Shown here: positions 2,516-6,510 of the stretch, piece by piece
How the letters are laid out: each line of letters opens with the position of its first letter
Numbering within the stretch: position 1 is the first letter of the stretch
Notes under the pieces: generated by a model
Database searches by the model: none
What the model saw: the letters and a program-made list of their open reading frames with translations, nothing else
Told to the model about the DNA's origin: nothing
Program-made: the position numbers and the translations under genes
From: an uncultured Bacilli bacterium
GTDB lineage: Bacteria > Bacillota_I > Bacilli_A > RF39 > UBA660
DNA: 64,000 bases
Direction: 5' to 3'
Assembly: GCA_944359725.1 (NCBI GenBank)
Contig: CALVSY010000006.1
Span: 1,876 to 65,875, forward strand

Positions 2516-3220
2516 TTACTTAACTTTACTTTTTCCTAAATAATATTCTTTCATTTCATTTACTATTTCATCACCCAATTCTTTAGATAATTCTTTATTT
2601 TCTAATATCGTTAATAACCCATCGTAACCTCTTGTTTGGATTAAGTATTTTACAACTAAATAAGATATTACATACCCATTATAATCATCATTCACGAACT
2701 TTTTACCATGCCTTAACTCATTTAAATTAGGAATGTTTTTAAAAGATTTAAACCTATTTAAAAAATTATCAAAATCATCATCACTAAATTCTCCAGATAA
2801 GTTTTGTGCAAGACCTTCATCTAACCAAATTATACGTTTATTTATATCATTTTTCAATATTTTTTCCAAATAGATTATATGTGCCAATTCATGAAAAATC
2901 ATATGACTTTTTCTTTTATAAAATGGGCTATCCTTTTTAATATCAGATTTAAAATAAGCATTAATCATACCTTTATCAAAAGTTCCGGTTGCATACTTAG
3001 GCAATTCATCAACACTAACGCCTCTAATATTTGCAACAAAACTTTTAAACTCATCAGAATCATCAAATAAATTTACCGTTACACATCTAAAACTATCAAT
3101 TTTAAAGAAGTCATATATCTCTTTAGTTTTATATAAAGATATTTCAAGCATGTCTTTTACAATATCAACTAAAGAATCAGAAAAGTTGATAGTAAAATAC
3201 TTGTTTTTTAACTTCTTCAT
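2516..3220 (-). CDS. Peptidase MA-like zinc metalloprotein
   Basis: HELAH (HExxH) followed by WLDEGLA. Confidence 0.75.
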   Translation of the reverse strand: MKKLKNKYFTINFSDSLVDIVKDMLEISLYKTKEIYDFFKIDSFRCVTVNLFDDSDEFKSFVANIRGVSVDELPKYATGTFDKGMINAYFKSDIKKDSPFYKRKSHMIFHELAHIIYLEKILKNDINKRIIWLDEGLAQNLSGEFSDDDFDNFLNRFKSFKNIPNLNELRHGKKFVNDDYNGYVISYLVVKYLIQTRGYDGLLTILENKELSKELGDEIVNEMKEYYLGKSKVK

Positions 3221-3239
3221 AAAATCACACTTCTTTCAT

Positions 3240-3722
3240 TTATAAATCATAAACATAAACATTCTCTAGATAAACTTTATCTTTTATTGTAAACTTGCTT
3301 TCACCAACTTTTTTACCGCCGATTTTTTTATAAAAAACGTTTGCACTGTTTGCTTTTAAAGTGCTTATTAAAACATGCTTATATTCATTTCTTAATTTAT
3401 TAAAAACATAATTAACTAACTTAGTTCCAATTCCTTTTTGCTTATAATTATTATGAATGTACAGCATATAAATCTCAGCATAGCTATCATCATAACCTTT
3501 TTTATTTATTCCATATTTTACAAAACCAATAACATCGCCATTTAATTCATACACTACATACTTATCAATATCATTGGTACATCTTTTGATACTTTTTTCA
3601 CTTTTAGGATCAAGACCATCTAAATATTCTTTTGGAAAAATATTTTTATACTCTTTTTTCCAATCAATAACATTTATATATACAATCCTTTTAGCATCAC
3701 TTACATTTGCTTTTCTAATCAT
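3240..3722 (-). CDS. GNAT N-acetyltransferase
   Basis: YKQKGIGTKLV and ANVFYKKIGG motifs. Confidence 0.9.
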   Translation of the reverse strand: MIRKANVSDAKRIVYINVIDWKKEYKNIFPKEYLDGLDPKSEKSIKRCTNDIDKYVVYELNGDVIGFVKYGINKKGYDDSYAEIYMLYIHNNYKQKGIGTKLVNYVFNKLRNEYKHVLISTLKANSANVFYKKIGGKKVGESKFTIKDKVYLENVYVYDL

Positions 3723-3735
3723 TTAAATCACCTTC

Positions 3736-4503
3736 TTAAATCTTTCTTGATAATTCTAAAGCAAGCGTCATAACTTCTTTTTTCTTATCTAGTTTTGATA
3801 AACCACTTAAACTTCTTTCATCCCATACGGCTGAATCTAAATTATCTCCCGCATAATAAAACGTAAAGTAATCAATGTCTAAATATTTACAAACCGCTGC
3901 AATTATTGTACCTTCCATTTCAACACATACTGCACCATTATCTTTAAAATACTTTATTTTATCTTTTGTTTCTCTATAAATAGCATCTGTTGTCCAAGTA
4001 TAACCTTCTGTATAATCAAAGTTATATTTTCTTAATATTTCTATAAACTTATCTTTATATTTTGGGTTCATATCAATTAAATAATCATCGTCTATATAAT
4101 GATAACTTGTTCCTTCATCTCTAAAGCCCTTTGTTGGAATTATAATTGAACAGTCTTCTATATTAGAATCTAAAACACCACAGTTACCAAATATTATAAA
4201 CTTATTTACACCTGATGCATGAAGTTCTTCTATGTCTCCTGCAACCCAAGGACCAGACACACCTGCCATGAAAAAGGTTATTTCTTTATCCTTATAATTT
4301 AACTTATAAACTTTTCTTTCCGTGTTAGCTGTTGATAAAACGCCTTTTTCTTCACAAGGAAACTTACTTATAACATCTTCATATAAATGATGAGAAAAAA
4401 CTCCTACTGCTATTTCAGGTAAATCATTTACTCTTTTCTTTTTATCAACACTTTTAATTGGTTTTGCTTTTATAAAACCTTTTTCATTACTATACTTTAT
4501 CAT
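3736..4503 (-). CDS. Nucleoside phosphorylase (PNP/UDP family)
   Basis: RDEGTSYHY, WTTDAIYRET, VEMEG; start moved to the ATG at 4503, which follows a GAAGGTGA SD. Confidence 0.85.
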   Translation of the reverse strand: MIKYSNEKGFIKAKPIKSVDKKKRVNDLPEIAVGVFSHHLYEDVISKFPCEEKGVLSTANTERKVYKLNYKDKEITFFMAGVSGPWVAGDIEELHASGVNKFIIFGNCGVLDSNIEDCSIIIPTKGFRDEGTSYHYIDDDYLIDMNPKYKDKFIEILRKYNFDYTEGYTWTTDAIYRETKDKIKYFKDNGAVCVEMEGTIIAAVCKYLDIDYFTFYYAGDNLDSAVWDERSLSGLSKLDKKKEVMTLALELSRKI

Positions 4504-4539
4504 TTTTATCACCTTCTTTATAACCATTTTTAATAATAT

Positions 4540-4680
4540 AAAAACGGAGTCAAACTAGTAAATAATACTAGTGACTCCGTAATAACTACGTGTAGGCAAT
4601 AACCCTTTGAGGCTAGATATAAATCATACTCAAACTCACTTACTTGCTAATAAAATAACAAATACGATAATTTATGTCAA
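4540..4680 (-). promoter_or_regulatory. sigmaA-type promoter and structured leader with an intrinsic terminator upstream of the phosphorylase/GNAT operon
   Basis: TTGACA(4680-4675)-17 bp-TATTTT; hairpin ACGGAGTCA-CTAGTA..TACTAG-TGACTCCGT plus T-run (4540-4580); possible uORF MIYI at 4627-4613. Confidence 0.6.
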
Positions 4681-4775
4681 GCATTTTTATTAAATAATTT
4701 ATTTATAAAACAAATTACGACATTTTATTATATAAAAATGAATTAGTATATTAGCCTATAAGAAAGGAAACATTT

Positions 4776-5342
4776 ATGTCTTTAAATAAAAACATAATAA
4801 AATATACTAAGAAAGAAGTAATGAATATCTCTTCTAATAAAATAAAAATAGCTAAAAATACAAAGGATATAATGTTATTTGTAAAACAAGAACTAAATAA
4901 AAAAACTAGCAATTCAAAATTATATTTTGGTAAAATAAACGATATTACATCAAATAGAATTAAAATGTTAACAGGATTAGATTTAAGTAATTATAATATA
5001 TCTTTAAAAGGAGATAATGTAAGAAAAATTATAAAAGATCATGGTAATAAAGTTTTGGAAAAACTAAGAGGTCAAGAAGCTATCACGTTAGAAGATTTTA
5101 AACATATTGATGATATTATATTAGAAGCAGATAACATTTATTTATCAGGTAAAACAATAAATAATAAAGATGTAATTACATTTGTAAAAAAATTAAATAA
5201 CAAATATACTTTAGTAGAATTTATATCAACTAAAAGAAAAACTTTGGAGACACAAACAATGTATAAAAAAATAAAAAAGAACTCTGTCACTGCGGAAAAT
5301 ACTACTAATAGCACCTTTCCTAACGTCCGAAACGAACAGTGA
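4776..5342 (+). CDS. PBECR-like (phage Barnase/EndoU/colicin/RelE-like) nuclease domain protein
   Basis: KIIKDHG...E..RGQEAIT.EDF..I.DII..AD, then FVKK...YTLVE...KRKTL..QTMY pattern recognised from memory. Confidence 0.65.
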   Translation: MSLNKNIIKYTKKEVMNISSNKIKIAKNTKDIMLFVKQELNKKTSNSKLYFGKINDITSNRIKMLTGLDLSNYNISLKGDNVRKIIKDHGNKVLEKLRGQEAITLEDFKHIDDIILEADNIYLSGKTINNKDVITFVKKLNNKYTLVEFISTKRKTLETQTMYKKIKKNSVTAENTTNSTFPNVRNEQ

Positions 5343-5355
5343 TACGAGTTCCTTG
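5273..5355 (-). ncRNA. Candidate structured antisense RNA overlapping the 3' end of the PBECR-like gene
   Basis: TTGACA(5390-5385)-17 bp-TGnTATATT promoter; three-stem fold closed by GAACUC/GAGUUC and UCACUG/CAGUGA; ends in U6. Confidence 0.6.
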
Positions 5356-5451
5356 TTTGATAATATATCATAATAAAATATAAATGTCAATTAACATATT
5401 ATCATTAATATTATAGTTTTAAAAATAAATATTATAACTAAATGTCGTTAA

Positions 5452-6510
5452 TTAGATTTTTTGATTATTTTTTACTTCTTTTAGTACGTCTTTATAATCA
5501 TCACCTGTTGTATCACTTAATATTCTTAAATAACTTTCATATCTATGAATATTTATAATTCCATTTAAAACACTTTTTTTAACAGCACATTTATTTATTG
5601 GTTCTTTAAAATGAATGCAATCTTTATACTTGCATTTATCATTTAGGTCTTTAAACTCTGAAAAATAATATTTTATCTCCTCTTTTTTTAGCTGCGATAA
5701 ATTAAGACTTCTAATACCTGGAGTATCGATTATAGATGAATTATGATTCCACATATAATACGTACTTTTAGTTGTTGTATGTCTTCCTCTTTTAGTTTTA
5801 CCACCGACACTATTTATTTTTACATTATCATTTCCTGTTATTAAACTTGTTAAAGATGATTTTCCAACACCACTATTACCTACAAATATTGCTTGTTTTT
5901 CTTTTAACATTTCTTTTAATTCACTAATTCCTGTTTTATCATAAGTTGATGTTTCAATAACTTTTATTCCTATATCTTTATATGTTTTAAGTAATTCTTC
6001 TTCTTTTTTTGTTTTTAAATCAGATTTATTTAAAACAATTATATATGGAATTTTACTATTTTCTAAAATCATTATATATCTATCAACAAACCTAGGATGA
6101 AACATAGGCTCTTTAAAAGATGCAACAATAACAGCAAAATCTATATTACATGCAATTATTTTATTTGTAAAAGAATTATCATTTAATTTAGAACCATCTT
6201 TTACCATTCTTGATAATATATTTTTTCTTTTAATAAGATTAGTAATAATATAATTATTATTTTCATTTTTAATTAAAATCTTATCTCCTGGATATATAAC
6301 TTTGTTACATGGATAATTAATTTCATTTTTTAATTTTGCCAATATAACTTTATCCTGGTACAAAACAAATGCATCATTATATCTTACTTCTATAACAACC
6401 CCATAATTACTTGATTTTTCTATAACAAAATCGTTTTTTATTTCTATATGTTTATTCTTATTTTTTCTTTTCTTACGTTTAAAACTTTCATAAGAATTTA
6501 AATGTGGCAT
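5452..6510 (-). CDS. rsgA: Ribosome small subunit-dependent GTPase RsgA
   Basis: Circularly permuted NKSD, GNSGVGKSS, GRHTTT, DTPG; zinc finger CKYKDCIH..EP..C. Confidence 0.92.
   Translation of the reverse strand: MPHLNSYESFKRKKRKNKNKHIEIKNDFVIEKSSNYGVVIEVRYNDAFVLYQDKVILAKLKNEINYPCNKVIYPGDKILIKNENNNYIITNLIKRKNILSRMVKDGSKLNDNSFTNKIIACNIDFAVIVASFKEPMFHPRFVDRYIMILENSKIPYIIVLNKSDLKTKKEEELLKTYKDIGIKVIETSTYDKTGISELKEMLKEKQAIFVGNSGVGKSSLTSLITGNDNVKINSVGGKTKRGRHTTTKSTYYMWNHNSSIIDTPGIRSLNLSQLKKEEIKYYFSEFKDLNDKCKYKDCIHFKEPINKCAVKKSVLNGIINIHRYESYLRILSDTTGDDYKDVLKEVKNNQKI

Follow-up and report, generated by a model that had tools for sequence, protein, structure and literature searches.

A gene for a predicted ribonuclease that stands by itself, with no protein antitoxin beside it, raises the question of what keeps such a protein in check, and at the locus described here a small RNA gene running back into the 3′ end of the coding region is a candidate answer. 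The locus lies in a stretch of 64,000 nucleotides, called the window below, from an uncultured Bacilli bacterium of the RF39 lineage (assembly GCA_944359725.1, contig CALVSY010000006.1, positions 1,876 to 65,875) and its gene encodes a protein with a PBECR3 domain. The original prediction had described a nuclease gene with a convergent, promoter-driven and structured antisense RNA, and all of these elements were found where it had placed them. The locus would be a two-gene module, composed of a PBECR3 endoribonuclease (endoRNase) and a convergent non-coding RNA of about 86 nt with its own promoter, in which the RNA would be the cognate antitoxin or immunity RNA of the RNase. That the RNA neutralises the RNase, in a type III-like manner by binding the protein or in a type I-like manner by antisense pairing, is put at about an even chance on the comparative evidence presented here.

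The protein matched Pfam family PBECR3 (PF18812) over the domain with 70.2 bits against a cut-off of 30 (E 1.7e-19), in line with the RNase fold first read from the lone plus-strand open reading frame (ORF), and 20/20 homologues at 50–98% identity matched the same family. Invariant or near-invariant columns among 21 homologues comprise the motifs KIIKDHG (with H89) and RGQ (98–100) as well as S151 and T161; of the 21 sequences, at least 90% have H89 and every one has S151. In the AlphaFold2 model, with a mean predicted local distance difference test score (pLDDT) of 89.4, K87-D88-H89 closes a helix of residues 79–89, a helix at 105–116 is followed by four strands, and T161 lies in the last strand. 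Residues 1–169 are modelled with confidence, and the score falls below 50 for residues 170–188, opposite the RNA gene. In colicin D-type RNases of the BECR fold a histidine ends the N-terminal helix and a serine or threonine is found in the C-terminal part, and H89, S151 and T161 fit the residues named for colicin D-type and PBECR domains in the available parts of two sources (PMC5512222; bioRxiv 10.64898/2026.08.28.747851). Structural comparison with VIA-align gave BECR toxins as the top rows: BrnT (Z 6.6), 7vd7 (Z 6.2), CdiA-CT (about 5), RelE (4.4–4.7) and colicin D (4.0). The protein is predicted to be a BECR-fold, metal-independent endoRNase. No match for it was obtained with PADLOC, PHROGs or NCBIfam, a sequence search of PDB returned nothing relevant and a metagenome scan by protein alignment returned no relative.

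The RNA gene starts from a promoter of the build TTGACA-17-TGnTATATT that fires back into the PBECR3 gene, as originally described, and is predicted to be of a strong sigma-70 type with an extended −10 element. With a score of 11/12 and the TG present it is the top promoter-like site in 4400–5700. The match alone is weak because such sites are common in this AT-rich DNA, with 17 in the region compared to 12.1±3.9 in shuffles; it carries weight because most of 23 copies of the RNA, including those inside the long ORFs of polyvalent (giant multidomain) proteins, keep a promoter of like build and distance in this position. A transcript from about 5355 to about 5270 would result. The minus strand of 5356–5262 is predicted to fold into a three-way junction (−27.6 kcal/mol, z −4.34; 0/200 shuffles as stable), built of an outer stem P1, an inner stem P1b and two hairpins, P2 and P3, which agrees with the outer stem and inner hairpins of the earlier reading. 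The run of six U's reported at its end is present and is continued, after an A, by further U's; in 21/21 aligned copies at least three U's follow P1, the run being interrupted in four polyvalent copies. On the DNA level, RNA gene and ORF overlap on opposite strands by about 73 nt or about 24 codons, one more than first estimated. The RNA was not called as a tRNA or tmRNA by ARAGORN, and a tandem repeat array sought in 4400–5600 yielded low-complexity AT repeats only, the RNA being single-copy. A small protein from the RNA strand was considered and rejected: the transcript has no AUG and its sole GUG lies in the covarying P3 stem. In two near-identical loci (L040 and L043), TGATATATT-ATCAA, with which the RNA begins, is displaced upstream by about 45 nt relative to the other copies, which suggests a 5′ leader insertion or a moved promoter.

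A search with a 134-nt query and covariance model R1 found seven full-length copies of the RNA in 6/38 genomes of the genus, and strong full-length matches were present in 5/151 genomes of the family. A housekeeping RNA was rejected, since the distribution is too patchy for one. A leader or riboswitch of a downstream gene was rejected as well, the downstream gene being sufC, an AAA_14/DUF4143 ATPase, an unknown gene or none. An att-site duplication was rejected for the two copies of one genome (G023), both of which are full-length with promoters of their own and are 82% and 79% identical to the RNA of the window. Rfam cmscan of 4000–6000 at E≤10 gave chance-level rows only and no family; the sole row overlapping the RNA, ceN114 (5261–5303), is on the plus strand with 18.8 bits against a gathering score of 44.

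Base pairing is conserved through sequence change. A model-free MAFFT alignment of six copies contains 26 pairs, seven of them with a compensatory change. In an alignment of 21 copies drawn from genomes, metagenome-assembled genomes and viral contigs, 93.2% of cells pair versus 77.2% in shuffles and 40–52% with slid partners, and 20/26 pairs change on both sides, with 0/500 shuffles reaching any of these measures; these numbers lean towards structure because the copies were aligned to the model and are related to one another, and the model-free alignment points the same way. All nine pairs of P1 change on both sides in some copy, and compensatory changes occur in 5/7 pairs of P1b and 5/6 of P3. 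The G-U pairs had been said to favour the minus strand, and a U.G pair is indeed found in P2 in 19/20 distinct copies and a G.U pair in P3 in 15/20; the covariance model scores the RNA strand at 50–82 bits and the plus strand at 11–13 bits, E-values from the models made in this analysis being rough. Judged from these alignments, the RNA is a real, conserved and covarying family without a counterpart in Rfam.

The P2 hairpin behaves differently from the other helices. Its sequence (CGUUUNGGACGU) hardly varies, the C and G positions are invariant in 20/20 distinct copies, and a single copy (L046) carries a compensated variant, CGCUUCGGGCG. The third-codon positions of the TSET peptide that overlaps P2 are also invariant, and P2 is kept past the ORF stop, in each of the three frames in which it is read and at synonymous sites. 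This pattern indicates that P2 is constrained at the nucleotide level. The C-termini of the homologues, KKNSVT, KKELCH and KKRT, are the three frames of the complement of the 3′ stem and U-run, with tails of varying length beyond them. Since the same nucleotides are read in three frames, it is the nucleotides that are conserved there and not the residues, and residues 170–188 of the protein are, as modelled, a passenger of the RNA gene outside the fold.

A conserved, covarying 3′ antisense structure with a promoter had been named beforehand as the thing to look for in homologues, and it was found. Starting from the protein, eight loci (L038–L043, L044 and L046; L038 is the same place as RNA copy G023a) at 38–72% identity all carry the RNA on the opposite strand at the domain end, with 46–103 bits. 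Six of the eight come from genome_contigs, with 41–72% identity and an RNA of 50–103 bits, one of them being again the G023 locus; the other two are a viral contig (45% identity) and a faecal phage record (39%). In the opposite direction, from RNA to protein, 59 loci came out of a pattern scan of viral contigs; because this count is near chance by a rough estimate, the loci were filtered with the model, which confirmed seven copies in six loci. Every one of these seven viral copies is nested antisense within an open frame of 617 aa or more and comes immediately behind a PBECR3-like domain. Across the family, 150 genera other than this one were covered and four genomes had the RNA, twice by an intact PBECR3 gene, once at a contig end that cuts the gene but keeps the last motif of the domain, and once without the gene. 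Weaker matches lie exactly at the domain end in two polyvalent genes (L055, 25.7 bits; L056, 15.2 bits).

Where an element has two domains, the RNA is doubled. Locus L096 encodes two PBECR3 domains in tandem, each with its own diverged RNA (331–428, 43 bits; 946–1041, 68 bits), and locus L041 has two tandem PBECR3 units with diverged RNAs at 1138–1222 (15.8 bits, a weak match) and 3467–3562 (80 bits). By these matches there is one RNA per PBECR3 domain, and the RNA is tied to this clade of PBECR3 in both directions. As the original prediction had it for this locus, no adjacent protein antitoxin was found: none is conserved beside the gene across loci, and a comparison of neighbours revealed no shared Pfam family and no conserved protein partner. 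The source genome (G000) has a second PBECR3 match of 38.4 bits in a 234-aa open frame (L059; contig C5:48434-48649, minus strand), beside which model R2 found no RNA; this could be a member of a different subclade or a copy in decay.

The description of a lone gene holds for the window, where the gene is free-standing, and missed a wider setting, the giant polyvalent proteins of phages and mobile elements, where most copies of the unit are found and the RNA gene is nested antisense in the linker behind each PBECR3 domain. In L041, PBECR3 is part of an ORF of more than 1783 aa alongside LPD1 and LPD38, and L044 and L046 too consist of long open frames. When 1.84 billion representatives were searched with a profile, 2523 clusters (50% identity) were obtained at E≤0.001 and 257 at E≤1e-30. 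Among the best 150 of the 2523 clusters, 75 exceed a length of 1000 aa, and these match nearly the whole 185-position profile internally; another 25 have 300 aa or less. The gene of the window is considered a solo copy of a mostly polyvalent unit because its homologues are mainly giant multidomain proteins. The pattern T[SP][EKQR][TA], the in-frame complement of P2 and used as a proxy for the RNA, follows 78 of the 84 domain ends in polyvalent proteins that have enough downstream sequence, versus 109 of 1400 background windows, and two of the six domain ends lacking it read the same nucleotides in other frames. The flanks of the gene in the source genome (RsgA, PNP) are unrelated to those in G023 (ABC-2, CoatF, GlmS), and the pair of gene and RNA is common to both. 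From this comparison, gene and RNA move as a unit. In L041, at about 2950–3640, the peptide DDGVRAMK is found just before a PBECR3 unit and again just after its RNA, and could be a joint from duplication or insertion of the unit.

Loss of the two parts is one-sided. A six-frame profile search found no PBECR3 gene at six RNA copies (G023b, G030, G035, G015, G009 and G456). At G023b a 41-nt remnant of the PBECR3 catalytic region abuts the RNA, with a score of 54 versus a shuffle maximum of 34; candidate remnants beside G030, G035, G009 and G015 were at shuffle level and were not counted. In L043 the PBECR3 gene is frameshifted and the RNA intact. A gene of this clade without the RNA was not encountered among the loci examined. 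The RNA seems to outlive the gene, as would be expected of losses at a locus where the RNA gives protection from the protein, and the pattern of loss in these sequences fits a toxin-antitoxin pair.

Positions of the PBECR3 gene, its antisense RNA and the neighbouring genes in the window
Feature	Position	Strand	Description
PBECR3 gene (solo)	4776–5342	+	188 aa and stop; candidate toxin, predicted BECR-fold metal-independent endoRNase
PBECR3 domain proper	4932–5279	+	residues 53–168, Pfam envelope
Disordered C-terminal tail	5283–5342	+	residues 170–188 and stop, opposite the RNA gene
RNA promoter	5362–5390	−	−35 TTGACA 5390–5385; 17-nt spacer; TG 5370–5369; −10 TATATT 5367–5362
Small RNA gene	5266–5361	−	covariance-model span; models R1 100.9 bits, R2 95.5 bits
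P1 outer stem	5276–5354	−	5354–5346 pairs with 5284–5276; with the U-run the presumed terminator
P1b inner stem	5287–5342	−	5342–5336 pairs with 5293–5287; closes the three-way junction
P2 hairpin	5324–5334	−	CGUUUCGGACG; family signature, sequence nearly invariant
P3 hairpin	5294–5320	−	GGAAAG..UUUUCC; 6-bp stem, freely covarying; loop variable
U-run	5266–5278	−	U6 5278–5273, A, then U's, after P1
RsgA-type GTPase	5452–6510	−	housekeeping neighbour
PNP_UDP_1 phosphorylase	3736–4527	−	housekeeping neighbour

As to how the RNA would neutralise the RNase, the likeliest mode would be direct binding of the PBECR3 domain by the invariant P2 hairpin and the junction (type III-like), and base pairing of the RNA to the toxin mRNA at its 3′ end (type I-like) would be a second or alternative mode. 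Direct binding is favoured because P2 is unchanged in positions where coding cannot account for it (synonymous sites, three frames, sequence beyond stop codons), because each domain has an RNA of its own though one antisense RNA would be enough per mRNA, and because a nested RNA gene can move inside a shuffled domain unit. A protein immunity gene would be unable to travel within a giant ORF; an RNA gene nested antisense in a linker would be able to.

A further step is taken tentatively, with more doubt than confidence. The RNA may be an immunity determinant of a new kind, encoded antisense within the genes of injected polyvalent effectors, one per RNase domain, with P2 as a pseudo-substrate of the active site. 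Host RNA polymerase would transcribe the RNA upon entry of the DNA, or constitutively in lysogens, by which the injected RNase would be shut off after a delay and carriers would be shielded from their own and from related incoming effectors. The solo gene and RNA of the window would be a chromosomal, toxin-antitoxin-like derivative.

Several observations weigh against neutralisation of the RNase by the RNA. The co-occurrence counts come from related sequences in sampled collections and are not independent events, and PBECR3 relatives at 32% identity or less and other subclades are without the RNA. The promoters of gene-less copies are damaged, with a shortened spacer in G035, a degenerate promoter in G015 and a weak −35 box in G009, so that these copies look like relics that outlived the toxin gene and not like selected immunity genes; such relics fit an antitoxin and yet give no positive sign of action in trans. 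A simple terminator scan called no terminator at the 3′ end of the RNA, because its definition excludes a branched stem, and a branched terminator is in itself unusual. One sequencing run of guessed RNA type gave a single unstranded contig of 233 nt over 5073–5305 at 100% identity, which is uninformative on strand, ends and expression of the RNA, and none of the runs listed as containing the locus is recorded as RNA. The structural matches of the protein are modest, with every Z below 8, and Foldseek found nothing in PDB at E≤0.001. Finally, the strict cis-antisense placement of the RNA is as expected of a purely antisense regulator, and the P2 loop, U-U-N-G, fits the YUNR-type recognition loop of antisense RNAs.

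The last two points belong to the strongest alternative, which is possible and judged rather unlikely. The RNA would be a pure cis-antisense regulator that pairs with the sense transcript, leading to duplex cleavage or transcriptional interference, type I-like and leaving the protein untouched; PBECR3, or the whole polyvalent gene, would thereby be silent in lysogens or carriers. The RNA invariably runs opposite to the domain coding region and overlaps its 3′ end, the promoter of the RNA is predicted to be of a strong constitutive type, and convergent RNA antitoxins with 3′ overlap are known in Firmicutes. Complementarity survives any mutation, however, so that the invariance of P2 at synonymous sites and past the stop is left unexplained, as is the presence of one RNA per domain inside one mRNA, and an interior site of an mRNA of more than 5 kb would be odd for the control of translation.

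Less probable again, and held to be quite unlikely, is that the RNA works together with the RNase and does not inhibit it, be it as a cofactor, a guide, a processed substrate or the cargo of a ribonucleoprotein with the polyvalent protein. One-to-one pairing and an invariant hairpin would suit specific recognition, and the delivery with DNA that is proposed for PBECR domains in the available part of PMC5512222 would suit a cargo. An antidote agrees better than a cofactor with the pattern of loss, since the RNA is found without the protein and the protein of this clade never without the RNA, and a guide-like variable segment is not evident except for the P3 loop. The remaining options, an independent small RNA or terminator that is adjacent to PBECR3 by coincidence, for which 5/7 genus copies without a PBECR3 gene and in housekeeping contexts would speak, or a protein linker motif TSETxSGT (for example a processing site) without any RNA gene, for which the frequency of T[SP][EKQR][TA] after domain ends would speak, are very improbable in view of the adjacency in all protein-first loci and all viral RNA-first copies, the remnant at G023b, the covariation of three helices, the conserved promoter and U-run, the reading of the same nucleotides in three frames or past the stop in solo genes, and the unvarying synonymous positions of TSET.

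Neutralisation of the RNase by the RNA can be compared with known toxin-antitoxin systems. The type I systems txpA/RatA and bsrG/SR4 of Bacillus subtilis and Fst RNAI/RNAII of pAD1 have convergent antisense RNAs that overlap at the 3′ end. The module resembles them in its small structured convergent RNA with a strong promoter of its own, the 3′ overlap, the ending in a stem and U-run and the Firmicutes-type host range. Their toxins are membrane peptides of about 30–60 aa, whereas a 188-aa RNase-fold protein or a domain in proteins of 1000–4000 aa is found here, with RNA parts that are invariant beyond complementarity and one RNA per domain. Of the classical type I features, a cis-encoded antisense RNA overlapping the toxin gene is thus present at the DNA level, and a small hydrophobic membrane peptide is not, the protein being predicted to be soluble. 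SymE/SymR and RalR/RalA of E. coli are alike in having an enzyme-like toxin, a cis-encoded small RNA and no protein antitoxin; the toxin folds differ, SymR overlaps the 5′ end of its toxin gene, and neither system is known to be nested in polyvalent genes.

In type III systems (ToxIN, CptIN, TenpIN) an endoRNase toxin is neutralised by a bound structured RNA, and the favoured mode of action would, by analogy, share this combination of an endoRNase with a structured RNA that binds it. Type III RNAs are tandem repeats of about 34–36 nt that precede the toxin gene on its own strand and are processed by the toxin, in contrast to the single-copy convergent RNA of this module; an upstream repeat array on the same strand is lacking in 4400–5600. 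Neither is the toxin of the ToxN/AbiQ, CptN or TenpN family, PBECR3 being its only Pfam match, and no PADLOC model matched it. The module resembles type I or type III toxin-antitoxin systems, yet it fails the defining features of both classical families. The type I or type III-like reading in the original prediction is thereby partly supported, and membership of either classical family is not.

The closest relatives on the protein side are the PBECR domains of polyvalent proteins, for which the available part of Iyer et al. 2017 (PMC5512222) describes the same family, PF18812, and the same unit in giant LPD proteins; embedding of this kind is seen in L041, the copy in the window being solo, and solo versions of PBECR are mentioned in that paper. 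BECR toxins with a protein antitoxin or immunity protein comprise colicin D/ImmD, CdiA-CT/CdiI and BECR-Tox2/BECR-Imm2, according to the part of bioRxiv 10.64898/2026.08.28.747851 that was available. These pairs are alike in that a one-to-one neutraliser is encoded at the end of the toxin module, and differ in that it is a protein from a downstream gene, where this module has an antisense RNA gene. The literature searched, including the available text of Iyer et al. 2017 (PMC5512222), gave no RNA partner or immunity factor for PBECR domains and nothing linking PBECR to an RNA antitoxin or antisense RNA; the supplements of PMC5512222 and bioRxiv 10.64898/2026.08.28.747851 may bear on novelty.

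The surroundings of the module in the window are of a housekeeping kind, with further minus-strand genes (GNAT, deaminase, MetG) near the PBECR3 ORF. Comparison with the PNP homologues of relatives did not define an insertion boundary: homology stops at about 4703–4709 and the flanks are non-syntenic. The PNP_UDP_1 gene has a feature of its own, a second minus-strand promoter (TTGACA-17-TATTTT with TG, 4680–4652) followed by a leader of about 110 nt (4536–4680 of the window), in which a strong hairpin and U-run (4615–4536) end about 8 nt before the ribosome-binding site. This leader is kept in G029, G001 and G032, where the terminator is of a different build; G030 and G035 lack it, and Rfam has no match for it. 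It is a candidate attenuator or riboswitch of the nucleoside phosphorylase gene. The PNP homologue of G035 (L121, G035:C1:85523-86305) contains one in-frame TGA, which could be a pseudogene mutation, a sequencing error or a recoding event.

PBECR is a large family of predicted RNases in polyvalent effectors of phages and plasmids. If the RNA does neutralise the RNase, the module would be a new toxin-antitoxin combination, a BECR RNase with a single structured convergent RNA, and a cognate RNA hidden in the linker would explain how carriers tolerate PBECR toxins. If both binding and immunity are true, its nesting inside the genes of polyvalent effectors would be a new arrangement, in which RNA genes nested in coding sequence carry immunity through domain shuffling. 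The module in the window, minimal at about 0.8 kb, would allow antisense action to be told apart from protein binding, and the covariance model is a direct tool to search for further RNA genes of this kind.

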